The notes below the pieces were generated by a model. The model was given only the letters and a program-made list of their open reading frames with translations. It did no database searches and had not been told where the DNA came from. From positions 1,649-65,648 of the forward strand of contig JACZJU010000048.1 in the NCBI GenBank assembly GCA_014860395.1: a stretch of 64,000 nucleotides of DNA. Direction: 5' to 3'. This document shows positions 1 through 62,491 of the stretch, piece by piece. The stretch's first letter is position 1; every line of letters begins with the position of its first letter. The position numbers and the translations under genes were made by a program. The stretch comes from Burkholderiales bacterium (lineage in GTDB: Bacteria; Pseudomonadota; Gammaproteobacteria; Burkholderiales; SG8-39).

Positions 1-1
1 G

Positions 2-3360: not shown

Positions 3361-3545
3361 TTGCGCGGACGGCGGCCCGTCCGCGCGGATCATCGATTGT
3401 GCACGGATGAAAAGCGCATCCGTGCACAATCGATGATCTTGTATAAAAGCCCCGCAACCGCCTTTGCTTTTATCCATAACCGCGTTTTCTGTACGGATGC
3501 GTATTTATCCGTACAGAAAACGCGGTTGGCGCGCGCAGCGCGCAA
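3361..3545 (+). repeat. ~185-bp four-hairpin dispersed repeat (REP/REPIN- or MITE-like), copy 1
   Basis: TTGCGCG...CGCGCAA ends and two ~22-bp stems; homologous to four other copies in the window. Confidence 0.9.
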
Positions 3546-3580
3546 ATCCACCGGTTGAACTAAATAACGCCGGAAAAAAC

Positions 3581-5005
3581 TCAGGCCCGGCGCCAGGTCG
3601 TCCCCTGTGGTGTGTCCTCGAGAACGATGCCGCCGGCGAGCAACTCCTCCCTAATGCGGTCGGCTTCGGCGTAGTTCTTCGCTTTCTTTGCGGCTGCGCG
3701 CGCTTCAATCTGCTTGTGTATCTTCTCCTCCATCGGGCCTACCGCGGCTTGCTGCGCGCTTCCCTGCGCTATCGGCGCACCGGGCGCCGGGGCAACTGTC
3801 AGCGTGCGCCCTTGAAGGAATTCTGTCGGATTCCGGCCAAGCAGACCCAGTATCCCGCCCAGAGCTTGAAGCGAACCCGCGGCGTTCGCGGACTTCGTTC
3901 GATTTACTTCGGCCGCCAGCTCGAACAACACCGCGACGGCCTCCGGCGTATTGAAATCGTCGTCCATCGCAACACTGAAGCGGCCGGCGTGGTCCTCATT
4001 CCAGTCGATCGCCGTCGCCTGCGGCGGAACATTCTTGAGAGCCGTGTACAGGCGCGTAAGCGCGCCCTTTGCGTCGTCCAGGTGCTTGTCTGAATAGTTC
4101 AGCGGACTACGGTAATGCGCGCGCAGAATGAAAAACCGAACCACCTCGGCGTCGTACTGCTTCAGTACCTCGCGAATGGTGAAGAAGTTGCCGAGCGACT
4201 TGGACATCTTCTCGTCGTCGACGCGCACAAACCCATTGTGCATCCAGTAGTTCACGAAAGCATTGCCGTGCGCGCCCTCCGACTGCGCAATTTCGTTCTC
4301 GTGATGGGGGAACTGCAGGTCCTGGCCGCCGCCGTGGATGTCGAAATGCGCGCCGAGCAGCTTGCACGACATGGCCGAGCACTCGATGTGCCAGCCCGGC
4401 CGTCCTTCGCCCCATGGTGACGCCCATGCCGGCTCACCCGCCTTCGCGCGTTTCCAAAGAACGAAGTCGAGCGGGTCGTGCTTGCTCGGATCGGCTTCCA
4501 CGCGTTCGCCCGCGCGCAATTCGTCCAGCGTCTTGCCAGAGAGCTTGCCGTAGCCGGGAAATTTGCGCACGGCGTAATTGACGTCGCCGCTCCCCGCCTG
4601 GTAGGCCAGCCCCTTGGCCTGCAGCTTCTTGATCATATCCAGCATACCGTCAATATGCTGGGTGGCGCGCGGCTGGTAGTCGGGCTTTTGCACTCCCAGG
4701 GCCGCGGCATCCTCGTCCATGTACGCGATGAAGCGCGCGGTGAGTTCGCCAATGCTCTCGCCGTTTTCGACGGCGCGGCGGATGATCTTGTCGTCGATGT
4801 CGGTAATGTTGCGCACGTAGGTCACGCCAAACCCCGAGGCGCGCAGCCAGCGCTGCACCATGTCGAACACGACCAATACGCGCGCATGGCCCAGGTGGCA
4901 GTAGTCGTAAACGGTCATGCCGCATACGTACATGCGCACCTTGCCCGGCTCGATCGGGACAAAATCCTGCTTGCTGCGGGCAAGGGTGTTATATATCTTC
5001 AGCAT
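3581..5005 (-). CDS. cysS: Cysteine--tRNA ligase
   Basis: [13 protein letters not shown] and KMSKS motifs; start set at MLKIY. Confidence 0.98.
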
Positions 5006-5170
5006 GCGCAAAAAGCGGCCGGAATGCGTTCGGTTGCGCCGCGCATTCGGCGGGAAGGCGGCGACGCCGCCAAAGCTCCGGCAGGGGCCTTTATCGTCTC
5101 TATTGTGGAGGTTAGGGTGTTCTTGTTAGAATGCAAGGCTAACTTTAATGGCGTCAGAAAGTATATCACA

Positions 5171-6223
5171 ATGCACACCCTCGTTCTCCGCATCGCCTTC
5201 GCCTTCAGCCTTGCTTTGGCCGCTGCCGCCGTCCATGCCGACGAGCTGCAGGACATCAATCGCATGATGAAGCAGGGCCAGTTGCCGCAGTCCCTGGAAC
5301 GCGTCGACAAGTACCTCGCCGGCAAGCCGCGCGACGCGCAGGGACGCTTCCTGAAGGGCCTGATTCTGACGGAGATGAACCGCCCGAACGAGGCAATCCA
5401 GGTGTTTCAGAAGCTGTCGGAGGACTACCCCGAATTGCCCGAGCCGTACAACAATCTGGCGGTCCTGTACGCCTCGCAGGGCCAGTACGACAAGGCCAGA
5501 GCCGCGCTGGAGAGTTCCATACGCACGCATCCCAGCTACGCCACCGCGCACGAGAACCTGGGAGATATTTACGCCAAGCTCGCCAGCCAGGCTTACGACA
5601 AAGCCCTGCAACTCGACTCCTCGAACACAGGCGCCAAAACCAAGCTGGCCATGATAGGCGAATTGATCAGCGGCGGGACGCGCAGCCCCCGCACCGCCGC
5701 AAGCCCGGAACCAGCCAAGTCGGTGGAGGCCGCCCCGACCAAGGCAACCGATTCCGGCAAGACCAGCGTAGTTGCGAGCGCCAAATCGGGCGCGGAGACC
5801 AGCGCAACCGAACCTAAGACCGCAAAACCCCAGACTGCGGAGACCAAGGCTACCGAGCCCAAAGCCGCCGCAAGTAAGGACGCCGAAACCGACGAACTCA
5901 TCAAGACCGTGCAGGCCTGGGCCAGTGCCTGGTCGAAGCAAGATGTGCCCGGCTACCTCGCGCACTATGCCAAGGACTTCAAGACGCCCAAAGGCGAGTC
6001 GCGCGGCGACTGGGAAAAACTGCGCAAGCAGCGCGTCAGCGCGCCGAAGAAGATCGAAGTCGAGATAAAGTCACCCAAAGTCAGCATTAACGGCGACAAC
6101 ACGGCCACCGTAAGCTTCTACCAGGTCTACCGGTCCAATATAATCAAGGCCTCGGGAACTAAAACCCTGGACATGGTCAAAAGCAATGACAAGTGGCTAA
6201 TACGTGAAGAGCGAGTCAACTAA
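5171..6223 (+). CDS. Exported TPR protein with C-terminal NTF2/SnoaL-like domain
   Basis: Signal peptide, TPR motifs (PEPYNNLAVLY), Ala/Thr/Lys linker, WASAWSKQD domain. Confidence 0.8.
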   Translation: MHTLVLRIAFAFSLALAAAAVHADELQDINRMMKQGQLPQSLERVDKYLAGKPRDAQGRFLKGLILTEMNRPNEAIQVFQKLSEDYPELPEPYNNLAVLYASQGQYDKARAALESSIRTHPSYATAHENLGDIYAKLASQAYDKALQLDSSNTGAKTKLAMIGELISGGTRSPRTAASPEPAKSVEAAPTKATDSGKTSVVASAKSGAETSATEPKTAKPQTAETKATEPKAAASKDAETDELIKTVQAWASAWSKQDVPGYLAHYAKDFKTPKGESRGDWEKLRKQRVSAPKKIEVEIKSPKVSINGDNTATVSFYQVYRSNIIKASGTKTLDMVKSNDKWLIREERVN

Positions 6224-6226
6224 TTG

Positions 6227-7420
6227 ATGCAGTTGCGGCGCGGGTTATCGAATACATTACTTGCCGGAGCGCTGGGTCTCGCCAGCGCCGTCTTCATTTC
6301 ACCGCCGTCTGCTCAGGCAGACGAAAGCACTGACGATCAGCTGGGGAAGGTGTTCGAGGAAATCGAAAGCAACCACCTCGATCTGGCACTCAAGCACGTT
6401 GAGGCTTTGCTCCGGGCCAAACCCAATTTTCGCCTGGCCTACCTGATCAAAGGCGACCTGCTGCTGGCCCGTGGCCGTGCAATCAAGGCCTTCGGCAATG
6501 CCCCTCAAGGTACGAGCGCGCGGCTCGACGACCTGCGCGCCGAGGCGCTGGTCCGCCTGCACGCCTACCGCGACCGACCATCGCAGGACCGGGTGCCGCG
6601 CTACCTGATGCAGATGCGCCAAGATCAACGCTACGCCATCGTAGTCGACAACAAACGCTCGCGCCTGTACCTTTACCAGAATGAGAACGGCCGGCCGCGC
6701 TTCGTCGCCGATTATTACATCAGCATTGGCAAACGCGGCGGGGAGAAAACGCGCGAAGGCGATGACAAGACGCCAGTAGGCGTGTATCACGTCACGGCCA
6801 GCCTGCCGCGGAACAAACTCTCCGATCTATATGGCAGCGGCGCCTTTCCCATCAGCTATCCCAACGAATGGGATAAGCGCCACGGCAGGAACGGCCATGG
6901 CATTTGGCTGCACGGCACGCCCAGCGATACCTACAGCCGCGCCCCGCGCGCCAGCAACGGCTGCGTGGTACTGGCCAACGCAGACCTGGACGCATTGTCC
7001 AAGAAGCTGCAAATCGGGCTCACGCCGGTGATTATCAGCGAACAGATCGAATGGCTTTCGCTGGATGACTGGAATGCCGAGCGCAATGCGCTCAATGCGG
7101 AAATCGAGAGCTGGCGCAGCGACTGGGAAAGCCTGGATACCGAACGCTATCTGACCCACTACTCGAGCAAGTTTTCCGCCGACAATCAGAACTTCTCTGA
7201 ATGGGGAAGACACAAGCGCCTGGTCAACAGCGGCAAGAGCTGGATCAAGCTGAAACTGTCCAATTTCAGCATGTTCCGCAATCCCGGCAAGGAGGAACTG
7301 GTAGTCGTGACCTTCGACCAGGACTACCGCTCGAACAACTTGATCAACACGATGAAGAAACGCCAGTACTGGACCAAAGAAGGCGGCAAATGGCGCATCA
7401 TCTACGAGGGCGCGGGCTAG
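6227..7420 (+). CDS. L,D-transpeptidase (YkuD) family protein with NTF2-like C-terminus
   Basis: IWLHGTP...ASNGCVVL catalytic motif; GDDKTPVG. Confidence 0.88.
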   Translation: MQLRRGLSNTLLAGALGLASAVFISPPSAQADESTDDQLGKVFEEIESNHLDLALKHVEALLRAKPNFRLAYLIKGDLLLARGRAIKAFGNAPQGTSARLDDLRAEALVRLHAYRDRPSQDRVPRYLMQMRQDQRYAIVVDNKRSRLYLYQNENGRPRFVADYYISIGKRGGEKTREGDDKTPVGVYHVTASLPRNKLSDLYGSGAFPISYPNEWDKRHGRNGHGIWLHGTPSDTYSRAPRASNGCVVLANADLDALSKKLQIGLTPVIISEQIEWLSLDDWNAERNALNAEIESWRSDWESLDTERYLTHYSSKFSADNQNFSEWGRHKRLVNSGKSWIKLKLSNFSMFRNPGKEELVVVTFDQDYRSNNLINTMKKRQYWTKEGGKWRIIYEGAG

Positions 7421-7558
7421 TCGTCCCCGTCCACAGGCCGGTACAAACCAGTCAGCGCAAAACGCGCAGAAAACCGGACTTGGTCTTTTGTGCCCCCCTT
7501 CCGCGTTTGTCGCGGTCGTGACCGCTGTATATCCGAATTGAAAAGAAGGGCTAGAAAC

Positions 7559-8134
7559 ATGCGCTCGTTTCAGTTTCTGATTTTGGGCATCCTGCTTTGG
7601 TCGGCGCAGGCATTTGCCGCCAACCCGCTAGTCGAAATGAAGACCAGCGCCGGCGCCATACGCATCGAGCTCTATCCCGACAAGGCGCCGAAAACGGTGG
7701 CGAACTTCCTGCGATATGTAAAAGACGGCTACTATGACGGCCTGGTCTTTCACCGCGTCATCGACGGCTTCATGATCCAGGGCGGCGGCTTTTTTCCGGA
7801 TCTCAGTGAAAAGAAAGGCGCCCGCCCGCCGATCGAGAACGAGGCCGGCAACGGGCTGAAGAACGAGGTCGGCACTGTCGCGATGGCACGCACGCGCGAC
7901 CCAAATTCGGCCACAGCGCAGTTTTTCATCAATGTCGCCGACAACGCCCCCCTCAACTTTCGCGACCCCAGCCCAGACGGAATCGGCTACGCCGTTTTTG
8001 GCAAGGTGACCCAGGGCATGGAGGTGGTGATGCGCATCGCGCACACGCCTACCGGTCCGGGCGGCCCTTTTGCCAAGGACGTGCCGCGGCAGCCGGTCGT
8101 CATCCAATCCCTCACCCTCATTAACGACAAATAG
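7559..8134 (+). CDS. ppiA: Periplasmic cyclophilin-type PPIase
   Basis: Signal peptide; [14 protein letters not shown] and AQFFIN motifs. Confidence 0.9.
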
Positions 8135-8144
8135 CGAGCCCATC

Positions 8145-8636
8145 ATGGTCAAATTGCACACCAACCACGGCACTATCACCCTCGAACTCAACGCCGCCAA
8201 GGCCCCAAAAACGGTGGAGAATTTTCTCGCCTACGTGGCGAGCGGGCATTACGACAACACCGTGTTCCATCGCGTAATCGACGGTTTCATGATCCAGGGC
8301 GGAGGCTTCGAGCCGGGCATGAAGCAAAAGCCGACGCAGGCACAGATAGAGAACGAAGCGGCCAACGGCCTCAAGAACGAGCGCTACACCGTCGCCATGG
8401 CGCGAACTTCCGACCCGCACTCAGCCAGCGCCCAGTTTTTCATCAACGTCAAGGACAACAGCTTCCTCAACCATACCGCGCCGACGCCGCAGGGCTGGGG
8501 CTATTGCGTGTTCGGCAAAGTGGTCGAGGGCATGGACGTGGTGGACAAAATCAAGGCCGTCAAAACCGGCAGCCGCGGCGGTCATCAGGATGTCCCCGCC
8601 GAAGATGTGGTAGTGGAACGCGCCGAGGCGGTATGA
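8145..8636 (+). CDS. ppiB: Cytoplasmic cyclophilin-type PPIase
   Basis: [14 protein letters not shown] and WGYCVFG motifs; ppiB-lpxH synteny. Confidence 0.93.
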
Positions 8637-8736
8637 ACACGGGGACGGCGCGCAGCATCCAGGGCGCGCGTCCCCGGCAGGCTAGCTAGCTAGCGATCGA
8701 TTCTATCCGCGTTCTGCGCCCCGCCCGGCGGTCCGC

Positions 8737-9465
8737 TTGAGCACCCTCTTCATTTCCGACCTGCACCTTTGCTCCGGCCGCTCACAGAGTAACCGTTGCT
8801 TCTTCGGTTTTCTCGAAAGTGAGGCACACAGCGCGGACGCTCTTTACATCCTCGGCGACCTGTTCGAGTATTGGGTCGGCGACGACGATCTGGACGACCC
8901 GTTCAACTCCACTGTGGTCGCCGCCCTCGCCCGCCTGGTCGCAAGCGGAGTCCCAACTTACCTGATGCATGGCAACCGCGATTTCGTCATCGGCGAGGCG
9001 TTTGCGCGTGCCAGCGGGGTCACGCTGCTGCCGGATCCCACTTTGATCGAGCTGCACGGGCAAGCGGTGCTGCTGATGCACGGCGACACCCTGTGCACCC
9101 TCGATCTGGAATACCAGGCGTTCCGGCGCGAAGCGCGCAGCCAGACCTGGATCAGCAATCTCCTGCACCAACCCCTCGCGCAACGCAAGGCCGCGGTCGA
9201 AGCGCTGCGTCGTAAAAGCGAGCAGGAGAAGCGCGGCAAGCCGGCCGAAATCATGGACGTCGCGCCGGCCGAAGTCGAGGCTGTCTTGCGCCGCTACGGC
9301 TATCCGCGGCTGATCCACGGCCATACCCACCGTCCCGCCCGCCACGTACACAGAGTCGACGGCCATGTCTGCGAGCGCTGGGTGCTGGCGGATTGGTATC
9401 ATGGCGGCAGCTATCTCGTCTGCGACGAATCCGGCTGCCGCGCGGTGCAACTGAGCGGAACCTAA
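8737..9465 (+). CDS. lpxH: UDP-2,3-diacylglucosamine hydrolase
   Basis: DLH, GDLFE, HGNRD and HGHTH motifs. Confidence 0.95.
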   Translation: MSTLFISDLHLCSGRSQSNRCFFGFLESEAHSADALYILGDLFEYWVGDDDLDDPFNSTVVAALARLVASGVPTYLMHGNRDFVIGEAFARASGVTLLPDPTLIELHGQAVLLMHGDTLCTLDLEYQAFRREARSQTWISNLLHQPLAQRKAAVEALRRKSEQEKRGKPAEIMDVAPAEVEAVLRRYGYPRLIHGHTHRPARHVHRVDGHVCERWVLADWYHGGSYLVCDESGCRAVQLSGT

Positions 9466-9491
9466 GAACTCGTTGCATACGGCGAAAGACC

Positions 9492-9674
9492 TAGCGCGCT
9501 ACGCGCGCCAACCGTGTTTTCTGTACGGATGAAAAGCACATCCGTACAGAAAACACGGTTATGAGTTTAAGCTAGGACGGGGTTACCTTTATACGAGATC
9601 GCGAAATACGCACGGATACGCTTTTCATCCGTGCGTATTTCGCGATCCGCGCGGACGGCTTTTCGTCCGCGCAA
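9492..9674 (-). repeat. ~185-bp four-hairpin dispersed repeat, copy 2 (inverted)
   Basis: Reverse complement aligns with copy 1, with compensatory stem changes. Confidence 0.9.
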
Positions 9675-9744
9675 AGAAGACTCTGTAACGGACGCGATTC
9701 CAGTCGCACGTATGAAAGCCGCGGCGGCTTTCACTGTTACCATT

Positions 9745-10917
9745 TTAGCTTAGTCCGCGCTCGAGATCGGCTTGAATGTCGCCGAGCGACTCCAGGCCAA
9801 CAGCGACGCGCAACAACCCCTCGCCTATGCCCGCCGCCTTGCGCGCTTCGGCGCTGATACGGCCATGGGTGGTCGTGGCAGGATGGGTAATCGTGGTCTT
9901 GGTGTCGCCAAGATTGGCGGTGATCGAAATCATGCGCGTCTCATCAACCACCCGCCACGCCGTCTCCCTCCCCCCCTTGACCTCGAACGACACCACCGCG
10001 CCGCCGAGGCGCTGCTGCTTCTTCGCCAGTGCATATTGCGGATGCGAAGGCAGGCCGGGATAGTACACGCGCTCGATGCCGGTGTGCCGTTCCAGCCACT
10101 GCGCCAACTGCAGCGCAGCCTGCGACTGCGCGTCCATGCGTATGCGCAATGTTTCCAGCCCCTTCAGCAGCACCCAGGCATTGAACGGAGAAAGGCTCGG
10201 CCCGGCTGTACGCAAGAAGCCGTAAACGCCGTCCATTACCGCTCCCCGTGGTCCCACCACCGCTCCGCCCAGCACCCTGCCCTGACCGTCCAGATATTTG
10301 GTCGCCGAATGAATCACCAAGTCCGCTCCGAGTTTCAGCGGCTGCTGCAGTGCCGGTGTACAAAAACAATTGTCCACCGCCAGCAGCGCACCCGCGCTTC
10401 TGGCTACCGCCGCCAGCGCCGCGATATCCGCGATCTCGGTAAGCGGGTTGGACGGGGTCTCGACAAACAGCAGCTTGGTGTCCGGGCGCAACGCCCCCTC
10501 CCAGGCGGCGACACTGGCGCCGGCGACGAAGGTGGTCTCCACGCCGAATTTGCCCAGGATGTTGGAGAACAGTTGCACCGTAGAGCCGAATACACTGGCC
10601 GAGCACAGCACATGGTCGCCCGCCTTGAGCACGGTCATGGCCGTCGCCAGTATCGCGGACATGCCCGAGGCAGTGGCAACGCAGGCCTCGGCGCCTTCGA
10701 GGGCCGCGAGGCGCTCCTGGAAAGCGCTCACCGTGGGGTTGGTGAAGCGCGAATAAATATTGCCTTCCGCGCCGCCGGTGAATCGCGCCGCCGCCTGGGC
10801 TGCGTTCTCGAACACAAAACTCGAGGTGAGATACATCGCCTCGGAATGTTCGCCGAACTGGCTGCGGTGGATGCCGGTGCGCACCGCCAGGGTATCGAAT
10901 TCGCTTGTGTCTGCCAT
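9745..10917 (-). CDS. metZ: O-succinylhomoserine sulfhydrylase
   Basis: YSRFTNPT and HSATKYLDGQGR (PLP Lys); downstream of purF. Confidence 0.95.
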   Translation of the reverse strand: MADTSEFDTLAVRTGIHRSQFGEHSEAMYLTSSFVFENAAQAAARFTGGAEGNIYSRFTNPTVSAFQERLAALEGAEACVATASGMSAILATAMTVLKAGDHVLCSASVFGSTVQLFSNILGKFGVETTFVAGASVAAWEGALRPDTKLLFVETPSNPLTEIADIAALAAVARSAGALLAVDNCFCTPALQQPLKLGADLVIHSATKYLDGQGRVLGGAVVGPRGAVMDGVYGFLRTAGPSLSPFNAWVLLKGLETLRIRMDAQSQAALQLAQWLERHTGIERVYYPGLPSHPQYALAKKQQRLGGAVVSFEVKGGRETAWRVVDETRMISITANLGDTKTTITHPATTTHGRISAEARKAAGIGEGLLRVAVGLESLGDIQADLERGLS

Positions 10918-10938
10918 GATTCCGCCCGGTCAAAATGC

Positions 10939-10972
10939 AAAAAACCCGCCTAGCTTTGGCTAAGACGGGTTT
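10939..10972 (-). terminator. Intrinsic terminator in the metZ leader (riboswitch expression platform)
   Basis: Minus strand AAACCCGTCTTAGC-CAAA-GCTAGGCGGGTTTTTT. Confidence 0.75.
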
Positions 10973-10976
10973 CCCA

Positions 10977-11054
10977 CGCTTTAGCTGTATTTGTTTGCCG
11001 GTCGGTGAACCAGGAACCGGCTGCGCCCGCAAGCTATGCTTCAAATCGGCGCAG
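10977..11054 (-). ncRNA. SAM-II riboswitch (long-loop variant) upstream of metZ
   Basis: Minus strand CUGCGCC-GAUUUG...UUGC-GGGCGCAG-[GCCGGU..ACCGGC hairpin]-CAAAUACAGCUAAA; SAM-II pseudoknot consensus upstream of a Met gene. Confidence 0.88.
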
Positions 11055-11098
11055 CGCTACGTTACTACCGTAGCGCGAAGGTGTCAATCAACACCCTT

Positions 11099-12622
<1,524 letters not shown>

Positions 12623-12626
12623 GGTT

Positions 12627-13115
12627 TCACCTGTAACGGATGCGTTGCGCCAAATCTTTCGGTAGCGCCGGCCTCGCAGCCAGCACCGCAGTTTCAACCG
12701 GGCCGGACAGCGCGGCCTCGCGCCAGAACGACTCCTTCGGCAAGCTGGTCAACCCGGCGAACATTACACCGATGAACACAATCACCGCCCCGCGAACGAA
12801 CCCGAACAAGGCGCCTACGGCGCGGTCGGTAAAACCAAGGCCTGCCGCATGAAACAGCTTGGCCAGCAGTAAGCCGACCGTTCCAGACAGCAGCAGCACA
12901 CCGAGAAAAATCACCAGGTAAGCGATGACCACCCTCAGCATATGCGACAAACTCGCAGGCAGCCACTGCGCCAGTTCCTGTGCAAACAGCCCCGACAGTA
13001 TCAGCGCCGCTGCCCATCCCGCCAGCGCGGTGATTTCCCTCACCACCCCACGAAATAGCGCCAGCAGCATCGACAGACCGACGATGATGACTACGGCATA
13101 GTCAAACCATGTCAT
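12627..13115 (-). CDS. cvpA: Colicin V production protein CvpA
   Basis: Hydrophobic; RGVVRE and DRAVGALFG motifs; cvpA-purF synteny. Confidence 0.92.
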
Positions 13116-13726
13116 CGGCTTACGACGGCACCGGGCTTGAGTCCCATCTTCTCCAGCTTGGCACGCGCCTTCTCCGCAGCCTCCTTGCTCGCAAAAGGCC
13201 CGGCGCGCACGCGCGTCAGCTCGCCCTTGCTGGTCTTGACCGGCTCAGTATATGACTTAACCCCGGCCGCAGAAAGCTTGCTGCGCATCTGCTTTACGTT
13301 TGCCTCATCGGCGAATGCGTCGAGGGCCACGACCCAGGCCTGGTCATTAAGTGCCGCCCTTGCGCGCAACTCTTCGGCCTTGCTTTGCGACTTGGGCGCC
13401 TCCTTCGCTGGCGCCGGTTCTGCATTGGCCTCTAGCGTAGCCGCCTTGACCGCAGCAGGTGGCTCGGCTTTCACCGGCGCAGGCTTGGCTTTTGCCTCAG
13501 GGGCAGACGCGGCGGGCATGGCGGGGGCGGGCGAAACGACACCGGATTTGAAGCCGCTGGATTCCTGGTTGGGGATCTGCACGCTGAGCGGCGGGCCGGC
13601 CGGCCCCGGCTCCTTGTCCAGAATGAGCGGCAGTATGATGACGACGAAAGTCACCAAGGCGATGGCGCCGACCAGGCGGCGACGGGCTCGCCGTTTCAGC
13701 TGCAGGGCTTCTTCGCTTTCGGCCAT
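13112..13726 (-). CDS. dedD: SPOR-domain cell division protein DedD
   Basis: RRRLVGA plus TM helix, Pro/Ala linker, SPOR domain (RVRAGPF); folC-dedD-cvpA synteny. Confidence 0.88.
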   Translation of the reverse strand: MAESEEALQLKRRARRRLVGAIALVTFVVIILPLILDKEPGPAGPPLSVQIPNQESSGFKSGVVSPAPAMPAASAPEAKAKPAPVKAEPPAAVKAATLEANAEPAPAKEAPKSQSKAEELRARAALNDQAWVVALDAFADEANVKQMRSKLSAAGVKSYTEPVKTSKGELTRVRAGPFASKEAAEKARAKLEKMGLKPGAVVSR

Positions 13727-13833
13727 CTACGCCTTTGCATACATTGCTAATTCAGGGGGCCAAGGTGGCAAAGGACGGGCCCCTCCCGCCCTTCATGCTC
13801 CGCCAAGCCGCTTCGGCAACGCTGAAACGACCT

Positions 13834-15105
13834 CTAGCGCTTCCCCCGGGCAGCGATTACATCCGCCACGGTAAGGAAGGATCCGAACACAAGGATTCTA
13901 TCATTTTCGGCGGCGCCGCTGCGCGCAGCTGCATAGGCGGTCGCTGGATTTTCGAACTCGCGCACCGCGTTCACCCCCGCCTGACGCAGCGCCTGCGCCA
14001 ATTCGGCCGCCTGCGCGCCCCGCGGCGGTGGCAGGCTGCAGACGAACCAACGGTCTATGTACTTTGCCAGCACGCTCACCACACCGAGTATATCCTTGTC
14101 CCGCAGCATGCCGAATACAGCCGAGGTGCCGGAGCAGGGCTCTAGATCCGACAGATTTTGCGCGAGCACTGCGGCTGCCTGCGGGTTGTGCCCCACATCG
14201 AGCACCAGCGCGGGGTGTCCCGGCAGCAGCTGAAAACGCCCGGGCAATTCCACCTCGGCCAAACCCTGGCGCAGTTGGCGCTCGGACACGGGCAGACGCT
14301 CGCGCAGCGTGTCCAATGCCGCCAGCGCAGCGCTCGCGTTCTGCAGCTGTATCTTGCCGCGTAGCGCTGGGCAGGGCAAGCCGGACTTCCTGCCCGCCGG
14401 CCCCCGGAACGACCAGAGTTCGCCCTCGTCCTGGTAGCCGAAATCCTGCCCGATGCGCAGCAATCGGGCACCCACCGCCTGCGCCTGTGCCGCTACCGAC
14501 GGCGGCGCCGCCGGGTCGGCGAGCACGGCCGGTTTTTCGGCGCGGAAGATGCCTGCTTTTTCATGACCGATGGCTTCGAGCGTGGTGCCGAGGTAATCCA
14601 TGTGGTCCATGCCGATGCTGGTGATGATGGCGCAATCGGCATCAAAGGCATTCACCGCGTCCAGGCGCCCGCCCATACCGACCTCAAGCACCAGCACGCC
14701 CACGGCGCTGCGCAGAAAGAGATCCACTGCGGCGAGCGTGCCGAATTCGAAATAAGTTAGCCGATTATCGCCACTTTGCTCTGTCCTGGCAGCCTCCACC
14801 CGCGCGAACGCGGCAGCGAGCGCCGCATCATCGACCTCCCGCCGGGCGATGCGCACGCGCTCGTTGTAGCGCAGCAGATGTGGCGAAGTGTAGAGGCCGA
14901 CGCGATAGCCGGCCGCCGTGAGGATCGCCTCCAACATGGCGCAGGTCGAACCTTTGCCGTTGGTGCCGGCGACCGTGATAACAGGCACCGCAGGCGCGAG
15001 ACCCATCGCGACGCGCACGCGACCGACCCGCTCCAGCCCGAGGGCGATGGTCTGCGGATGCTGCCGCTCGATGTAGGCGAGCCAGCCGGCGAGGTCTTTG
15101 GGCAA
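13834..15105 (-). CDS. folC: Dihydrofolate/folylpolyglutamate synthase
   Basis: GTNGKGST, TSPHL and EVGMGGRLDAVN motifs. Confidence 0.97.
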   Translation of the reverse strand: MPKDLAGWLAYIERQHPQTIALGLERVGRVRVAMGLAPAVPVITVAGTNGKGSTCAMLEAILTAAGYRVGLYTSPHLLRYNERVRIARREVDDAALAAAFARVEAARTEQSGDNRLTYFEFGTLAAVDLFLRSAVGVLVLEVGMGGRLDAVNAFDADCAIITSIGMDHMDYLGTTLEAIGHEKAGIFRAEKPAVLADPAAPPSVAAQAQAVGARLLRIGQDFGYQDEGELWSFRGPAGRKSGLPCPALRGKIQLQNASAALAALDTLRERLPVSERQLRQGLAEVELPGRFQLLPGHPALVLDVGHNPQAAAVLAQNLSDLEPCSGTSAVFGMLRDKDILGVVSVLAKYIDRWFVCSLPPPRGAQAAELAQALRQAGVNAVREFENPATAYAAARSGAAENDRILVFGSFLTVADVIAARGKR

Positions 15106-15123
15106 ATTGAAACGCCGAGGAAT

Positions 15124-15993
15124 TCAGGCGCTCTCTGGCGCGATGCGCAGCAACAGCGTAATCAGCTGCGCCAACCGGTCGCGCATCTGGCGTCGGTCGA
15201 CGATCATGTCGATAGCGCCTTTTTCCAGCAGGAACTCGGCGCGCTGAAAACCTTCAGGCAATTTCTCGCGCACGGTCTGTTCGATCACGCGCGGGCCGGC
15301 GAATCCGATCAGCGCCTTGGGCTCAGCGATGATTACGTCGCCGAGCATGGCGAAACTCGCCGACACGCCGCCCATGGTGGGATCCGCAAGCACTGAAATG
15401 AAAGGCAGTCTGCGCGCGCTGAGCTGCGTCAGCGCCGCGGTGGTCTTGGCCATCTGCATCAGCGAGAGCAGCCCCTCCTGCATGCGTGCGCCGCCGGTGG
15501 CGGTGAAACATACGAACGGCAGGTTCTGCTCCACGCACACCTGCACGCCGCGCACGAAACGCTCGCCCACCACCGAACCCATCGATCCACCCATGAATTC
15601 AAACTCGAATACGGCCGCAACCAGGGGAACGGTTTTGATTGCGCCTTGCATCACCACCAATGCGTCAGTCTCGCCGGTCTGCCGCTGCGCATCCGCAAGG
15701 CGGTCGCCATAGCGCTTGCTGTCCTTGAACTTGAGGCTGTCCACCGGCAACACCTCGGCACCTATCTCGAACCGGCCCTCCGGATCGAGCAGCATGTCTA
15801 TGCGCGCGCGCGCGGAAAGCCGGTTATGGTAATTGCACTTCGGACAGACATTGAGGTTCTTTTCCAGATCGGTGGCGTACAGCACCGCGTCGCAGGACCC
15901 GCATTTGATCCATAGCCCCTCGGGCACGGCGCGCTTGCTCGGGCCGATCGAGCGCTTGATCTTGGGCGGCAGCAGTTTCTGCAACCAGCTCAT
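15124..15993 (-). CDS. accD: Acetyl-CoA carboxylase carboxyltransferase beta subunit
   Basis: Zn finger; [10 protein letters not shown] and GGARMQEG motifs. Confidence 0.98.
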
Positions 15994-16790
15994 TTTGCAT
16001 CCAGCGCTGCGCGTATGCCCTGCAGGAACCGGCTCGCGTACAGCACCTGTTCGCCCGCCGGAGCAGCTTCCATCTGCTGAATAATGGCACTGCCGATGAC
16101 CACCGCGTCGGCCAAGGCCGCGACAGCCTTGGCCGTGGCGGCGTCGCGGATACCGAACCCTACGCCCACCGGCAGCTTGGTCTCGCGCCGGATCCTAGGA
16201 ATCTTCTCGGCCACCTCGGTCAGATCGAGGTGCCCTGCCCCGGTAACGCCTTTCAGCGAAACGTAGTAGAGGTAGCCGCTGGCAAGCCGAGACACCTGCG
16301 CAATGCGTGCGTCGCTCGAGGTCGGTGCAAGCAGGAAGATCAGGTCCATGCCGTGGCTGCGCACGAGACCAGCGAAGGACTCGCACTCCTCCGGCGGATA
16401 GTCCACCACCAGTACGCCGTCCACGCCGGCTTGCTGCGCCTCTTCGACGAAGCGCTCCGCCCCCATCGCCTCAATCGGATTGGCATAGCCCATCAGCACC
16501 ACCGGCGTAGCCTTATTCGTGGCGCGAAACCCGCGCACGAATCCAAGCACCCCGTCCAATCCCACGCCGTGACGCAGAGCACGATCGCTGGCACGCTGGA
16601 CCACCGGGCCATCGGCCATGGGATCGGAGAACGGCACGCCGAGTTCGATTACGTCCGCGCCTGCTTCGACCAGCGCATGCATCAGCGGCACCGTCATGCC
16701 GGGCTCCGGATCGCCGGCGGTGACGAAGGGGATCAGCGCCTTTCGGTGGCTCCGGGCAAGTTGCTCGAATGTGGCCTGGATGCGCGACAT
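15990..16790 (-). CDS. trpA: Tryptophan synthase alpha chain
   Basis: [14 protein letters not shown] and VGFGI motifs. Confidence 0.98.
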
Positions 16791-16797
16791 TAGGATT

Positions 16798-17595
16798 TCA
16801 CAATACAGAAGTAAGACTTGCCGCCGCGCGCTTCACGCGTTGGTTGCCGTTCACTGCCTTGGCAACGCGCTTTTCCACAATGGCGAAATAGTCGGGGTTG
16901 AGTTCGAAACCGATGAAATTGCGTCCGTGGCGGATCGCCGCCGCCGCCGAAGTGCCGCTGCCCATGAACGGGTCGAGCACGACGCCGCGCGCCGGGCAGC
17001 TCGCCAGCACCATGCGCTCAATGATTTCCAGCGGCTTTTGCGTCGGATGGTCCTCACGCTCGGCATGTTGGCGATGCAGACGCGACACGCTCCACACGTC
17101 CTTGGGGTTATAGCCTTCTTCCAGCCATTTCTTGCCGACGAATATGGAGCGCGAGCGCGCCTTCTTGGTTTCGGCGTCATAAGGAATGCGCACGGCATCG
17201 ACATCGAAGTGGTAGTCGCGCGACTTGACGAAAAAGCCGATGTTGTCGTGCACCGAGGAAAATTTGCGCGTGCTGCCGCCCATGCTCGGGACCCTGCGGT
17301 CCCAGATGATTTCGTTCACCATGGCAAGCCGGGTCTTGAGATAGCTGAAGACTTCCGGGCTGTGCTGCCAGGTGAGAAACACGTACAGGCTGCCGTTCGC
17401 CTTCAACTTGGGCACAACGGCGTCGATCCAGCGCCGGCTCCAGGCGAGATACTCATCCGCGGCCAGACGATCGGAATCGTTGCCGTAGTCCTTGCCCAGG
17501 CCATAGGGCGGATCGGCAATAACCAGATCCACGGAGGCGTCGGCAACTTGGCCAATCCCGGCCACGGCATCCTCGTTGTAGAGCAGCGCGCTCAT
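16798..17595 (-). CDS. Orphan beta-class N6/N4 DNA methyltransferase
   Basis: [18 protein letters not shown] in beta order; start MSALLYNED; no nuclease partner nearby. Confidence 0.92.
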
Positions 17596-17606
17596 TCCGA
17601 TCCCGG

Positions 17607-18792
<1,186 letters not shown>

Positions 18793-18806
<14 letters not shown>

Positions 18807-19416
18807 TCTTTACTCCCGTTACGAAGGCCGCGATCTTCGCGGCGTCCTTGACCCCTTTTGCCGCTTCCACGCCACTGGACACGTCCACCGCCCAAGGCCG
18901 GGCTTGGCGCACGGCCGCGCCCACGTTGTCCGGCGTAAGCCCGCCCGAGAGTATGACGGGTCTGGCCAGATCGCGTGGGATCAACTTCCAGTCGAAAGAC
19001 TCGCCGGTGCCACCGTATAGCTGGTCATGGTAGGCGTCCAACAGCCAGCCCTGCGCCTCATGATAGGGCGACAGGTATTGTACCAAATCGGTCTCCGGCC
19101 TGACCCGCGCGGCCTTGATGTACGGCAGGCCGAAGCTGCCGCAGAAATCGGGCGCTTCGTCGCCATGGAACTGCAGCAGGCCGATAGGGCAGCCGCGCAG
19201 CACCGACTCGACTTGATCCCGCGTCGGATCGACGAACAGGCCGACCACGGTGACGAATGGCGGAACTGCCGCAGTAATCGCGCGCGCCTGATCGAGGCGC
19301 ACGCATCGCGGACTGCGTGCATAGAACACCAGTCCGATGGCGTCGGCGCCCAATTGCGCTGTGGCGCGCGCATCCTCCACCCGCGTGATGCCGCAAATTT
19401 TGACTCGTGTCCTCAC
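18793..19416 (-). CDS. trpF: Phosphoribosylanthranilate isomerase
   Basis: [14 protein letters not shown] and VDVSSGVE motifs; GTG start. Confidence 0.96.
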
Positions 19417-26513: not shown

Positions 26514-26594
26514 GAGCCTATTTCAAAATGAGAGGACACGTCCCCTCAAACTCCCCTAAATTGGGGGCCATTTCGGAAGCTCTGAAATGGCCTC
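26514..26594. mobile_element. Short MITE-like repeat, family 2, copy A
   Basis: GAGCCTATTTCA...TGAAATGGCCTC imperfect terminal inverted repeats; matches 51407-51514. Confidence 0.65.
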
Positions 26595-35583: not shown

Positions 35584-35767
35584 TTGCGCGGACGGCGGCC
35601 CGTCCGCGCGGATCGTCGATTGAGCACGGTTGAAAACCACATCCGTGCTCAATCGACGATCATGGATAAGACCCCAAAGCTTTATTCCCTTCATCCAGAA
35701 CCCTGTTTTTCGGACGGATGTGCTTTTGATCCGTCCGAAAAACAGGGTTGGCGCGCGAAGCGCGCAA
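35584..35767 (+). repeat. ~185-bp four-hairpin dispersed repeat, copy 3
   Basis: Aligns with copy 1; covarying stems. Confidence 0.9.
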
Positions 35768-51406: not shown

Positions 51407-51514
51407 GAGCCTATTTCAAAACGAGGGGATATCCCCTGCGGGGACTTCTTTCAGGGCGCCTCCTCTCATACTCCCCTAAACCAGGGGCCATTTCGTTAAT
51501 TCTGAAATGGCCTC
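51407..51514. mobile_element. Short MITE-like repeat, family 2, copy C
   Basis: Same ends and internal blocks as 26514-26594, plus a ~27-bp insertion. Confidence 0.65.
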
Positions 51515-56130: not shown

Positions 56131-56171
56131 CTTGATCCGGGCAACCGCGTGCAAACAGCGCGCCCGCGGGC

Positions 56172-58283
56172 TCAGCCGCGCGAGAACGCGGAGAAATCCT
56201 CAGCCGCAACCGGACTGCCGGCGAGATAGCCCTGGAATTCGTCGCAGCCGTGCTCGCGCAGGAATTCAAGCTGTTCCTGCCGTTCCACGCCTTCGGCCAG
56301 CGGCGTCAGCTTGAGCGTTTTCGCGAGATTGATAATGGCGACGGCGATGGCGCGCTCATCGGCATCGGTGCCCAGATCGTCGATGAATGACCGGTCGATC
56401 TTGAGTTTGTCGATCGGATAGCGTTTCAGGTAGCCTAGCGACGAATAGCCCGTGCCGAAATCGTCGATGGTGATCCTGACGCCGAGCGCGCGCAGCCCGG
56501 CGAGCGCATTGCCGACGATATCCTTGTCCATCAACAGGCTCTCGGTGAGTTCGAGATCTAGGTAGCGGCCTTCGAGCCCGGTATCGTCCAGCACCCGTTT
56601 CACCGCGGCCACCAGATCGCCGCGGCGGAACTGGACCGCGGACACGTTTACGGAAATTGGCAGCGCGGCATGGCCCGCGTCCTGCCACGCCTTGTTCTGG
56701 CGGCAGGCTTCGCGCAGGACATACTGGCCAATCTCGTCGATGAGACCGCGCGTCTCGGCGAATTCGATGAATTCGGATGGATCGATCAGGCCGCGCTCGG
56801 GATGGCGCCAGCGCACCAGTGCCTCGATGCCGGCCAGGCGCAGGTCGCTGACGCGCAGTTGCGGCTGATAAAAAACCACGAATTCCCCGCGCTGTACCGC
56901 CTGGCGCAGCCGCGACTCCCGCGCCAGGGTCGCGGCGCCCTCGTCCGAAAGCCCAGCGGTGTAGAAGCGGCTGTGGCCGCGGCCGTGATCCTTGGCGCTG
57001 TACATCGCCGCGTCGGCATTGCGGATCAGATCGTCCGCATTGTCGCCGTCGCGCGGGAACACGCTGATGCCGATGCTGGCGTTGGCGCAAAGCTCGCGGC
57101 CTTCGAGTTCGATCGGGGCGGAGATGACCTGCAGCAGCTTTTCCGCGACTTTGGCCGCATCCTCGGACGCGGCGAAATCGGCGAGGATCACCAGAAACTC
57201 ATCGCCGCCGAGGCGCGACACCATGTCCGCCTCGCGCAGCACCTCCTTGATGCGCCCGGCCACCTGCTTGAGCAGTACGTCGCCCACGTGATGGCCGAGC
57301 GAATCGTTGACGGTCTTGAAATTATCCAGGTCGATGAACATGATCGCCACCAGCGTGCCATGGCGGCGCGCCAGCGCGAGTATCGTGGTCAGGCGCTCGG
57401 TCAGGTAGGCGCGGTTGGGCAGGCCGGTGAGCATGTCATGGTGGGCCAGGTACTGGATGCGCGCCTCGGCGTGCCGGCGCGCGGTGATGTCGCGCAGCGC
57501 GCCCAGCCGGTGCGCCTCGCCCCGCAGGACTATCGTCTTGCCCACCAATTCCACTGCGATCCTGTGGCCGTTCTTGTGCACCACCTCGGCCTCGAATGTA
57601 TCCTCGCGCCCCTCGCGCATGTAATCGCTCATCGTCTGGTGCCACTCGCCCGGGACGAACTCCCACAGCGCGTGCCCTATTACCTCCTCGCGCTTGTAGC
57701 CGCCGATCGCGAGCAGCGCGTCGTTGACGTCGGTGAGGATGCCGTCCTTGTGGAAGAAAATGCCTTCGTTGGTGGCAGCGGCGAACTTGCGCATGCGCTC
57801 TTCGCTGTCGCGGATCTCCTGCTCGGCGCGATGGTGCCGGGTGATGTCGGTGATCAGGACGAACGCGCCCAGCATCTGCGAGCGCTCGTCGAAATGCGGA
57901 ATCAGGTGGACCTCGACGATGCGCTGCTCGCCGTTGGGAAGCATCAGCGGACGGGTGTACTCGACCTTCTCCCCCTTCAACACGCGCTCGACCTGCGGCT
58001 CGATGATGTGCCAGGCCTCTTCGCCGATGGCTTCGCGCACGGTCTTGCCGATGATGGAATCCACAGTCCACCCGTTCGCTTCGGCATACGCTTTGTTGGC
58101 GAACACGCAACGCAGGGTCTGGGGCTCGTAATACGCGATCAGCGCCGGCACGCTGTCGGCGACCAGTCGCAGCAGGGTGTCCTCGCCGTACCTTCCGGCA
58201 TCGTCCGGCGCAACCGCGCTCATGGCGCCAAGCGCAGGGTCCGTTTCGGTGTCGCCGAAATGGACCCTGATTTTGGGGAGCAT
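56172..58283 (-). CDS. PAS-PAS-GGDEF-EAL c-di-GMP turnover protein
   Basis: Two PAS/PAC domains; GGDEF, EALVRW and DDFGTGYSS motifs intact. Confidence 0.95.
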   Translation of the reverse strand: MLPKIRVHFGDTETDPALGAMSAVAPDDAGRYGEDTLLRLVADSVPALIAYYEPQTLRCVFANKAYAEANGWTVDSIIGKTVREAIGEEAWHIIEPQVERVLKGEKVEYTRPLMLPNGEQRIVEVHLIPHFDERSQMLGAFVLITDITRHHRAEQEIRDSEERMRKFAAATNEGIFFHKDGILTDVNDALLAIGGYKREEVIGHALWEFVPGEWHQTMSDYMREGREDTFEAEVVHKNGHRIAVELVGKTIVLRGEAHRLGALRDITARRHAEARIQYLAHHDMLTGLPNRAYLTERLTTILALARRHGTLVAIMFIDLDNFKTVNDSLGHHVGDVLLKQVAGRIKEVLREADMVSRLGGDEFLVILADFAASEDAAKVAEKLLQVISAPIELEGRELCANASIGISVFPRDGDNADDLIRNADAAMYSAKDHGRGHSRFYTAGLSDEGAATLARESRLRQAVQRGEFVVFYQPQLRVSDLRLAGIEALVRWRHPERGLIDPSEFIEFAETRGLIDEIGQYVLREACRQNKAWQDAGHAALPISVNVSAVQFRRGDLVAAVKRVLDDTGLEGRYLDLELTESLLMDKDIVGNALAGLRALGVRITIDDFGTGYSSLGYLKRYPIDKLKIDRSFIDDLGTDADERAIAVAIINLAKTLKLTPLAEGVERQEQLEFLREHGCDEFQGYLAGSPVAAEDFSAFSRG

Positions 58284-58317
58284 GAGGGGAGAGGTCCCCG
58301 CATCTTGAAATTAACGC

Positions 58318-59094: not shown

Positions 59095-59128
59095 GGTATG
59101 GTTCCCGATAGTCTGGCTGGCAATCGTT

Positions 59129-59764: not shown

Positions 59765-59814
59765 ACCAACTCCAGATACTGCGAATTGATACTGCCGCAT
59801 GCCAAGAGAAACCT

Positions 59815-60000
59815 TTGCGCGCTGCGCGCGCCAACCGTGTTTTTGGTACGGATAGAAACCATCCGTACCAAAAACACGGTTATGGATAAAAACGAAGGCG
59901 GCTTGGGGTGATTTTTATCCAAGATCGTTGATTGTGTGTGGACGTGCTTTTCATCCGCACACAATCGACGATCCGCGCGGACGCGGCGCCGTCCGCGCAA
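59815..60000 (-). repeat. ~185-bp four-hairpin dispersed repeat, copy 4 (inverted)
   Basis: Reverse complement aligns with copy 1; sits between otnK and otnC. Confidence 0.9.
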
Positions 60001-60074
60001 GTGCCAACGATCCTTCGCCGCCACATCGCAACGTCGCAATAACGGGAGACATCGATTTAAGTCGCCAAGCATCA

Positions 60075-61340: not shown

Positions 61341-61343
61341 GGT

Positions 61344-62237
61344 TCAGGCTTTCTTGGTTGGCAATTGGATGCCTGGATAGTTCTTGATCACCGCGGAATC
61401 GTCCTCGCCGCCGCGCCCAGCGGCTGCGGCAGCGAGAAATACCTGGTGCGCAGTCGCAGTGAGCGGCAGCGGAAATGTCGACTTCTTCGCCGTGTCCAGA
61501 ACGATGCCCAGGTCCTTGACGAAGATATTCACCGCCGACAGCGGCGTGTAATCCCCGGCCAGGATGTGTGGCACCCGATTCTGGAACATCCACGACGAGC
61601 CGGCGCTGTTCGATATCACTTCATACAGCACCGCCGGGTCGGCGCCTGCGCGTATGCCCATGGCCATGGCTTCGGCCGCTGCGGCGATGTGCACGCCGGC
61701 CAGCAGCTGGTTGATCATCTTCACCTTGGAGCCGGCGCCGGGCGCATCGCCCAGCCGATACACTTTCTGCGCGATCGCGTTGAACACGTCCTCGACCTTG
61801 GCGAAATTTTCCGGCGCGCCCGCGCCCATGACGGTCATCTGCCCGCTGGCCGCCTTGGCCGCCCCCCCGGATACGGGCGCATCGATCATGCCCAGTCCCA
61901 TCACCGCGAGCCGGGCCGCGAGCGATTCGGCAAACTCGGGGGCGACTGTGGCGCTGGCAATCACCACCGATCCGGCGCGCATCGCGCCGGCTGCGCCTTG
62001 CTCGCCCAGCAGGACCGCCTCGGTCTGCTGCGCGTTTACCACCAGCGTCAACACCACCTCGCAAGCCGCGCCCAGTTCCGAAGGCGTGGCGCAGGCGATG
62101 CCGCCTTCCGCGGCAAAGGCGTCGAGCACCTCGCGCCGCACATCGCAGGCGTGGGTGCGAAAACCCGCGCGCAACAGCGACCGGGCGACGCCCAAACCCA
62201 TCGCACCCAGGCCGATGACTCCGACATTCTTGGTCAT
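61344..62237 (-). CDS. ltnD: L-threonate dehydrogenase
   Basis: GLGAMG, DAPVSGG, KMINQLLAGVH and SAVNIFVKD motifs; in the otn cluster. Confidence 0.88.
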   Translation of the reverse strand: MTKNVGVIGLGAMGLGVARSLLRAGFRTHACDVRREVLDAFAAEGGIACATPSELGAACEVVLTLVVNAQQTEAVLLGEQGAAGAMRAGSVVIASATVAPEFAESLAARLAVMGLGMIDAPVSGGAAKAASGQMTVMGAGAPENFAKVEDVFNAIAQKVYRLGDAPGAGSKVKMINQLLAGVHIAAAAEAMAMGIRAGADPAVLYEVISNSAGSSWMFQNRVPHILAGDYTPLSAVNIFVKDLGIVLDTAKKSTFPLPLTATAHQVFLAAAAAGRGGEDDSAVIKNYPGIQLPTKKA

Positions 62238-62309
62238 GCTGTTTCCTTCCATTCTATGACCTGGCGATCTGATCTGTATTGCGCGCTCTACCTCCGCGGG
62301 CTTGTGCTG

Positions 62310-62491
62310 TTGCGCGGACGAGAAACTGTCCGCGCGGATCGTCAATTGCGCGCGGATGAAAAGCACATCCGCGCGCAATTGACGATCTGGTATAACCCCA
62401 ATCCGTTCTTGCCTTTAACAATAACCGTGATTTCCGGGGGGATGCGCTTTTCATCCGCCCCGAAATCACGGTTGGCGCGCGCAGCGCGCAA
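62310..62491 (+). repeat. ~185-bp four-hairpin dispersed repeat, copy 5
   Basis: Aligns with copy 1; covarying stems. Confidence 0.9.

Follow-up and report, generated by a model that had tools for sequence, protein, structure and literature searches.

A 64,000-nt stretch of DNA from a Burkholderiales bacterium (GenBank JACZJU010000048.1, positions 1,649 to 65,648; the whole stretch is called the window here) carries five copies of an intergenic element of about 185 nt with a common layout of four predicted hairpins. Two homologous but diverged units of ~85-90 nt, placed head-to-head in inverted orientation, make up the element. We interpret it as a genus-specific, non-coding and non-autonomous palindromic repeat family of the kind represented by repetitive extragenic palindromes (REPs), bacterial interspersed mosaic elements (BIMEs) and REP doublets (REPINs), a reading to which we give a probability of about 0.75. 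The family is new, but the kind of repeat is well known. An earlier, sequence-only reading of the window had proposed a non-autonomous, REPIN-like inverted doublet that it did not recognize as a named family. Our data agree with this proposal, as the element consists of two related units and is intergenic, multi-copy and limited to one genus, and as Rfam returned no match in the window at gathering thresholds; a permissive Rfam search gave only generic long-hairpin matches far under those thresholds.

Strand-wise reading and alignment bore out all five copies that had been proposed, with their coordinates, strands and shared layout. The copies, the parts of copy 1 and the flanking modules are as follows.

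3361..3545, plus strand: copy 1, a full head-to-head doublet (model positions 1-186, E = 1.8e-53, nhmmer).
3335..3360, plus strand: left flanking module E of copy 1, from the flank comparison of 43 full copies.
3363..3386, plus strand: hairpin A of copy 1, short, GC-rich and conserved in sequence.
3388..3438, plus strand: hairpin B of copy 1, a 22-bp stem with a 7-nt loop.
3439..3477, plus strand: variable spacer of copy 1, with the lead sequence of one unit at each end, in inverted orientation.
3478..3527, plus strand: hairpin C of copy 1, a 21-22-bp stem whose lower part covaries.
3529..3543, plus strand: hairpin D of copy 1, short, GC and conserved in sequence, followed by AA.
9492..9674, minus strand: copy 2, a full doublet (E = 7e-47, nhmmer).
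35584..35767, plus strand: copy 3, a full doublet with convergent genes on either side (E = 7e-47, nhmmer).
59815..60000, minus strand: copy 4, a full doublet at the junction of two co-directional minus-strand genes.
59765..59814, minus strand: right flanking module F of copy 4, missing from empty sites, with GGAG just upstream of the ATG of the downstream gene.
62310..62491, plus strand: copy 5, a full doublet flanked by one minus-strand gene on each side, with the core found here in five of 13 additional genomes.
62492..62517, plus strand: right flanking module F of copy 5, resembling that of copy 4.
2183-3310, plus strand, and 3581-5011, minus strand: the convergent genes neighbouring copy 1.

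Each copy starts with hairpin A, which is short and GC-rich, and continues with hairpin B, a 22-bp stem bounded by GATC and closed at its apex by CGGATG, a 7-nt loop and CATCCG. A variable spacer of ~38 nt containing a C run separates this half from hairpin C, a 21-22-bp stem bounded by AACC and GGTT, and from hairpin D, which is short, GC and terminates with GCGCAA. The apical 19-nt unit of hairpin C is the reverse complement of that of hairpin B; the sequence-only reading had recognized this inversion and had quoted the stem interiors correctly. In the five-way alignment the likeness ends within a few bases of the borders listed above, and full copies score E = 1e-44 to 1e-53 with nhmmer, far above chance. 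The extent of ~185 bp originally proposed is that of the core, and many copies reach farther outward through flanking modules. The flanks of the 43 full copies of the genome contain recurrent, optional modules E (left), F (right) and H (left), of which E is also the end of a 58-nt linker found in arrays of units and F resembles the reverse complement of E. These recurring flanks indicate that the element is a mosaic of modules.

The two halves of the element are related over their whole length. When hairpins A and B and the adjoining half of the spacer are reverse-complemented, they align collinearly with hairpins C and D and the remaining spacer half in every one of the five window copies, with a mean column identity of 71% over 95 columns, and the sole large difference is that the short hairpin is 9 nt longer in A. 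Read on its sense strand, the unit runs from a T-rich lead through a 22-bp hairpin with a YGCTTTT loop and a short GC hairpin to a GCGCAA tail. In the long hairpin the six apical pairs and the 7-nt loop are fixed, and the lower stem is free in sequence yet paired. The 19-nt tip exists in at least two variants in the genome, one of which is an imperfect palindrome; by our own classification, ~20 of the 43 full elements carry the common type twice, 12 carry the second type twice and ~11 are mixed.

The units are found alone and tail-to-tail as well, and they build alternating arrays whose period is 243 nt. Many of the loci are ordered arrays, among them the following three with this spacing (C numbers are our handles for contigs, and G and L numbers those for genomes and loci).

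C298:21854-22450: ordered array, 243-nt spacing.
C184:10417-11064: ordered array, 243-nt spacing.
C47:4891-5474: ordered array, 243-nt spacing.

The order within an array is C-D, the 58-nt tail-to-tail linker, A-B, a 38-nt head-to-head spacer, C-D and onward, and arrays mostly open with C-D and close with A-B. The tail-to-tail form (C-D, linker, A-B) is free-standing at several loci, as are single halves, and decayed copies have usually lost the interior of a long hairpin. Two structural alternatives were dropped. A loop-loop (kissing) pairing of hairpins B and C, whose loops are complementary, was abandoned because the tips are mixed in ~11 of the 43 elements. An integron attC array was rejected as the array units are parted by 38- and 58-nt non-coding pieces and hold no cassettes, an integrase not having been searched for.

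To describe base pairing we used 72 copies, namely the five of the window and 67 full copies from other genomes that nhmmer identified within the loci of a pattern scan described below. RNAalifold returned 59 consensus pairs in four hairpins, with lower stems of B and C that are not mutually complementary, and 26 of the pairs show compensatory changes. Pairing is kept in 97.6% of 4247 cells, compared with 91.5 ± 0.2% in shuffled alignments; the 26 pairs changed on both sides compare with 13.9 ± 1.8, and the 270 cells with changes on both sides with 66 ± 7. None of 500 shuffles equalled any observed value, although the copies are related and the shuffle control consequently overstates significance. 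A control in which the pairing partner was slid by one to three columns, which is free of that weakness, yielded merely 16-28 both-side cells. The covariation of the long stems noted in the sequence-only reading thus exceeds both controls.

The covariation is confined to the long stems, 14 of the 23 pairs of hairpin B and 12 of the 21 of hairpin C having changed on both sides. Within hairpin B, it resides in the lower 16 pairs, the apical six pairs and the loop being conserved. Hairpin A has seven of its nine pairs invariant and none changed on both sides, five of the six pairs of hairpin D are invariant, and the apical six pairs of both long stems are conserved in sequence. The idea that structure rather than sequence constrains the element consequently applies to the lower long stems and fails for the short hairpins and the stem tips. 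Joint change is also seen between orthologous copies: at the copy 1 site, the element of the window's own genome (G000) and that of G009 are 94% identical, with flanking genes at 84-89%, and of the three pairs of stem B in which they differ, two are compensated and one is not.

Mismatches that remain in the long stems follow a bias that flips between the two halves. We counted them on the plus strand, over the lower 16 pairs of each long stem, in 110 full copies (43 from the own genome and 67 foreign). Stem B has 70 A:C cells versus 20 G:T cells, with A:C leading in 11 columns and G:T in one, whereas stem C has 40 G:T versus 14 A:C cells, with G:T leading in eight columns and A:C in one; at least one mismatch is present in 86 of 110 B stems and in 58 of 110 C stems. 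A:C on one strand corresponds to G:T on the other, and the wobble-tolerant strand therefore carries the YGCTTTT loop in both halves. The strand-bias check put forward in the sequence-only reading has accordingly revealed a wobble bias, reversed between halves. We take it as a lead, since the cells are not independent events. The bias cannot be explained by a single read-through RNA or by a symmetric cruciform and fits a hairpin that matters on one defined strand of each unit. On this evidence each unit appears to function as a single-stranded hairpin of one particular strand, and the nucleic acid in question is most likely DNA. IS200/IS605 and REP-associated tyrosine transposase (RAYT) enzymes are known to recognize their substrates as single-strand hairpins on one defined strand (PMC3733652). 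Divergent promoters in the spacer were considered as a source of the bias and rejected: a scan found no promoter-like site, and the would-be -35 regions would fall in the variable stems.

The window lies on contig C93 of a draft assembly of 336 contigs, 4.42 Mb and 63% G+C. Two rounds of nhmmer seeded with the five window copies gave 196 matches over both strands, both of which match because the element is almost its own reverse complement, and these reduce to 99 non-overlapping matches, 43 of full length and 56 partial. Merged at 150 nt, the matches form 63 loci, all of them short and non-coding. Just two matches reach contig ends, but in a draft genome the count is a lower bound. The sequence-only reading had extrapolated to hundreds of copies, an approximately threefold overestimate, since five copies within 64 kb make the window an unusually dense region. 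The most frequent 16-mer of the whole genome belongs to the element (40 copies). Public contigs of four DNA runs, covering window positions 1-20000, terminate at element borders, for example at 3386 and 3518, so that no excision or insertion junction is readable from them. In three runs of one study, the bins at window positions 3336-4002 and 9339-10005, which contain copies 1 and 2, have a summed contig depth 4-10 times as high as the bins around them, as expected of a collapsed multi-copy repeat. Among 23 sequencing runs for window positions 2600-4400, no RNA data set was found.

Gene context was assessed with our own crude caller, which selects open reading frames with high third-position G+C and called 3408 genes over 79% of the genome. 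At 45 of the 63 loci a called gene lies within 400 nt on both sides. Convergent gene pairs surround 26 of these 45 loci, compared with 378 of the 2131 intergenic regions (18%) in the background; divergent pairs surround only two, and their background share is 20%. Among loci in co-directional contexts, element and genes share their orientation nine times and are opposed 11 times (our own count). This mixed orientation gives no sign of a strand-specific RNA role and, together with the wobble bias that flips within the element, leaves the structured RNA gene envisaged as an alternative by the sequence-only reading unsupported.

A broader RNA-level role is an alternative that we regard as unlikely. 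The element would then shape transcript ends in both directions, serving convergent genes and operons as a terminator or by protecting 3' ends from exonucleases, and its function would outweigh its spread. The excess of convergent pairs (26 of 45 loci) fits such a role, as do the preservation of very stable 22-bp stems, a moderately T-rich tail after each long hairpin on the incoming strand, and the four terminator-like sites that a simple scan detects in copy 1, compared with 0.6 in shuffled sequences. Copies 4 and 5, moreover, lie within co-directional gene pairs and must be co-transcribed, and, in a published view, many REPs are found downstream of genes and act as RNA elements (PMC3733652). 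The details fit less well, however. The proximal long stem on the incoming strand bears the destabilizing A:C mismatches and not G:U, the tails are no canonical U runs, and congeners free of the element have 11-48 nt at the same gene junctions. Rfam gives no match, and half units, arrays and decayed copies together resemble a repeat population and not a tuned regulatory site.

The distribution of the element was determined at two levels. A scan for the hairpin A pattern in one genome per species, over 185,579 species, returned at least 116 loci. Among the matches listed, 113 of 116 loci contain the element according to nhmmer, and all 113 are in records labelled as metagenome-assembled genomes of uncultured Betaproteobacteria, Burkholderiales or Proteobacteria; the three element-free loci among them include one Streptomyces and one Phycisphaerales record. 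Within the genus the element is present in 19 of 22 other genomes, mostly with 27-46 scored matches. No scored match occurs in G001, G002 and G010, one in G020, two in G007 and five in G013. The element was found in neither of two other genera of the family and in none of 16 other families of the order.

Orthologous sites differ in whether they hold the element. Between the convergent genes of the copy 1 site, examined in 17 genomes, the core is present in six, 16-64 nt separate the genes in eight and remnants occupy the others. At this site G018 keeps module E, joined straight to the spacer and C-D without the first half-unit (A-B), G016 has lost the interiors of both long stems, and G022 and G011 have the other dimer phase. 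The copy 4 site, between two co-directional genes, is filled in nine of 16 genomes (217-445 nt) and has 11-40 nt between the anchors in seven, such that ~300 nt of repeat (window 59765-60074) are inserted into a tight operon junction in the own genome. The copy 5 site, again between two co-directional genes, has the core in five of 14 genomes, a remnant in one and a short or empty junction in eight. The filled genomes vary by site: G009, for instance, has the element at site 1 but not at sites 4 or 5, and G021 shows the opposite pattern at sites 1 and 4. This mosaic implies several gains or losses. Copies within the own genome have a mean pairwise identity of 76%. Identity to the nearest neighbour at another locus has a median of 87% and reaches 93% at most; for 26 of the 43 copies this neighbour lies in the own genome and not among the 67 foreign copies.

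These observations suggest how the family may have been shaped. Elements would have entered intergenic DNA at many sites during the history of the genus, tight operon junctions included, and would have survived mainly at gene 3' ends, where harm is least, with decay proceeding by loss of hairpin interiors. A Y1 (HUH) RAYT-like protein encoded elsewhere might copy or maintain the units in trans. Any effect as a bidirectional transcript-end hairpin would be secondary.

The own genome has three Y1_Tnp matches, one of IS200 type and two RAYT-like. The two RAYT-like genes lie at the following positions.

C23:3331-3854: RAYT-like gene, cut at the contig end.
C126:1150-1767: RAYT-like gene.

Both RAYT-like proteins score above the Pfam Y1_Tnp cut-off, and in all eight aligned proteins, which cover both paralogue types, neither the HUH histidines nor the catalytic tyrosine vary. 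Counting the own genome, 14 of the 17 element-rich genomes have a RAYT-like gene, and those lacking one are 89, 73 and 59% complete; among the six element-poor genomes, two have such a gene. The four genomes with zero or one element lack a Y1_Tnp match even by family model, at completeness values of 93, 96, 87 and 99%. In an unrooted FastTree phylogeny of four gene fragments from 17 genomes (3699 columns), these four element-poor, Y1-less genomes are spread over no fewer than three branches: G020 and the element-rich G004 are sisters (support 1.0), G002 groups with G010 (1.0) and G001 is sister to G021 (0.98). REPINs decay following RAYT loss, as reported in bioRxiv 10.1101/2021.07.10.451892, and the joint absence of elements and Y1 genes fits such a decay. 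The IS200-type gene (G000 C130:30841-31368, minus strand) contains an in-frame TGA, and its region is seemingly lower in G+C than the remaining genome.

That copies are made or maintained by a trans-acting RAYT-like Y1 (HUH) transposase encoded elsewhere in the genome is possible, at what we judge to be somewhat under even odds. More tentatively still, the repeats may be substrates of an unlinked, trans-acting Y1 HUH protein of the genus, of a RAYT-like type considered in the literature not to be REP-associated, which would recognize one strand of the two-hairpin unit of ~90 nt. If true, this would be the first case in which a REP-like population uses a transposase that is not embedded in its repeats, and the flipped A:C/G:T bias would be a sequence-only read-out of the strand that such enzymes use.

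Several observations weigh against our main interpretation or limit it, many of them touching the proposed link to Y1 proteins. The top NCBIfam model of the RAYT-like proteins is the REP-associated tyrosine transposase, at scores below its cut-off (66 and 53 versus 80 bits), and the 205-aa Y1 protein has no sequence match among solved structures. A RAYT gene flanked by the palindrome, which the sequence-only reading had suggested looking for, did not turn up: with nhmmer at E up to 1, no element unit lies within ~1.5 kb of 15 Y1 loci in 12 genomes, and no abundant 16-mer lies within 600 nt of the Y1 genes of the own genome, where the maximum count is 2-3 compared with a background median of 3. 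Repeat-rich Y1 flanks, the usual hallmark of a REP-RAYT pair, are therefore missing. The longer RAYT-like type has homologues with 52-60% identity in element-free genera and families, and its genes are bounded by private short inverted repeats. G005 is element-rich and 89% complete and has no Y1 match, and G017 lacks the Y1 paralogue of ~200 aa. Compensation in the stems could arise by hairpin-templated correction instead of selection, and the same mismatch pattern would result if a strand-specific C-to-T mutational bias ran outward from the spacer. The mismatch and genome counts were drawn from related sequences, so that p-values based on them overstate significance. Finally, the copies are old and no recent movement is visible. 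The comparison with empty sites foreseen in the sequence-only reading established presence and absence at orthologous positions, but exact ends, target features and target duplications are unreadable from it, because empty and filled intergenic DNA has diverged too far.

In four genomes, the 241-250-aa RAYT-like genes at L121 (G009), L122 (G014), L123 (G017) and L126 (G007) have their own ~20-nt inverted repeats, which differ by genome, and in G009 an additional direct repeat of ~95 nt lies upstream of the RAYT-like gene.

Two further explanations appear very improbable to us. In one of them, a mutational process generates the pattern: hairpin-templated repair or strand switching would copy changes from arm to arm, and the elements would be passive DNA or sites at which nucleoid proteins bind the tips. 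The arms do change jointly even between orthologous copies, sequence conservation of the tips and of the short hairpins is like that of protein sites, and the same tip variant tends to recur in both halves (~20 plus 12 of 43 elements, with 11 mixed). Templated correction, however, predicts neither a preference of A:C versus G:T nor its flip between halves, and uncorrected mismatches are frequent, as seen in the 86 B stems and 58 C stems mentioned above.

The other, a classical miniature inverted-repeat transposable element (MITE) whose short terminal inverted repeats (TTGCGCG ... CGCGCAA) would be recognized by the DDE transposase of an insertion sequence, is hardly credible: the core does carry an inverted repeat of 7-8 nt at its two ends, its size is about right and it shows presence and absence at orthologous sites, but no direct repeats were found beside the 43 full copies in the flank comparison (their true ends being uncertain), a MITE would not be expected to show half units, two dimer phases and ordered arrays, and the nhmmer matches in the genome include no longer parent element with the same ends. 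The sole gene between partial units (C169:4021-5433) was examined as a possible transposase and discarded, since its sequence is that of a DnaB-type replicative helicase.

The genome contains other repeats. A second, unrelated family has a unit of ~75 nt with two short hairpins, and its 16-mer AGGGGAGCACGAGGGG occurs 36 times in the genome, only slightly below the 40 of the four-hairpin element. It is represented in the window at four places.

26515-26590, minus strand: second repeat family.
29890-29930, minus strand: second repeat family.
51462-51477, minus strand: second repeat family.
58240-58310, plus strand: second repeat family.

A perfect 24-nt palindrome, CAAGGGGGGATGCATCCCCCCTTG, lies at window ~29985-30012, and its 16-mers occur 16-17 times in the genome; this palindrome, CAAGGGGGGATGCATCCCCCCTTG, may represent a third REP-like family.

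The four-hairpin element is the commonest repeat in a genus of uncultured Burkholderiales from groundwater, soil and bioreactors that is known from metagenome bins alone. It breaks short-read assemblies and is a possible marker for the genus and for strain typing. It extends the unit-dimer-array grammar of REPs and BIMEs to a far larger, two-hairpin unit. Elements and Y1 genes are jointly absent from at least three branches of the genus, and this makes it possible to ask in a natural setting if a non-adjacent Y1 transposase can sustain a repeat population. The flipped mismatch bias, in turn, provides a cheap, sequence-only way to find the working strand of palindromic repeats and is applicable to other families.

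We found no description of this family in the papers on REPINs, RAYTs and REPs that we consulted, the motif sequence itself not having been searched for. Among the better-known intergenic repeats, the enterobacterial repetitive intergenic consensus or intergenic repeat unit (ERIC/IRU) of enterobacteria and the Correia elements of Neisseria are, like the present element, intergenic, 100-200 nt long, co-transcribed with their neighbours and able to form long hairpins. Compared by description only, they are single long palindromes or MITEs bounded by terminal inverted repeats, without the grammar of unit, dimer and array. BIMEs are bound by IHF, gyrase and polymerase I. An ordinary REP unit is an imperfect palindrome of 20-40 bp, whereas only the 19-nt tip is of REP size here. 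REPs also carry a GTAG or CGTC tag at the palindrome end; in the alignments that we read, no GTAG stands at the stem foot and CGTC is located inside hairpin A.

The closest likeness in organization is to the REPIN-RAYT system of Pseudomonas fluorescens SBW25 (PMC3116915, PMC5581495). REPINs, too, are inverted palindromic doublets with a less conserved spacer, are extragenic and multi-copy, show compensatory changes in their hairpins, and occur as remnant-like singlets and as tandem clusters that include flanking sequence (PMC3116915). They form old, slowly evolving populations inherited within a lineage and are missing from genomes without the Y1 transposase (bioRxiv 10.1101/2021.07.10.451892, PMC5581495). 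In REP systems the inverted doublet is the common and better-conserved form, and 43 full head-to-head doublets occur here. In REPINs, the two REPs pair together into one long hairpin, whereas here each ~90-nt unit folds by itself into two hairpins. The REP-RAYT systems differ further in that the RAYT gene is flanked by the REPs; no RAYT-like gene is flanked by the element here, and the candidates score below the curated threshold for REP transposases.

BIMEs of enterobacteria (PMC2817692) likewise consist of regularly spaced palindromic units in alternating orientation with few linker motifs, have head-to-head and tail-to-tail junctions of distinct characteristic length, and are located at gene ends. 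By comparison with these, the units described here are two to three times longer, unrelated in origin and arranged with a period of 243 nt. The CGTC REPs of Di Nocera et al. (2013, PMC3733652) are mostly head-to-head dimers, often heterodimers, and have no transposase gene adjoining the repeats even in Y1-encoding genomes. They have stems of 8-9 bp, loops of 4-5 nt and a terminal CGTC, as opposed to the 22-bp main stem of our element. RAYT genes with private inverted repeats, which that work also describes (PMC3733652), are like the longer RAYT-like genes of this genus. In summary, the element follows the architecture of known palindromic repeats, and what goes beyond the known picture is its large two-hairpin unit, its flipping mismatch bias and its joint absence with unlinked Y1 genes.

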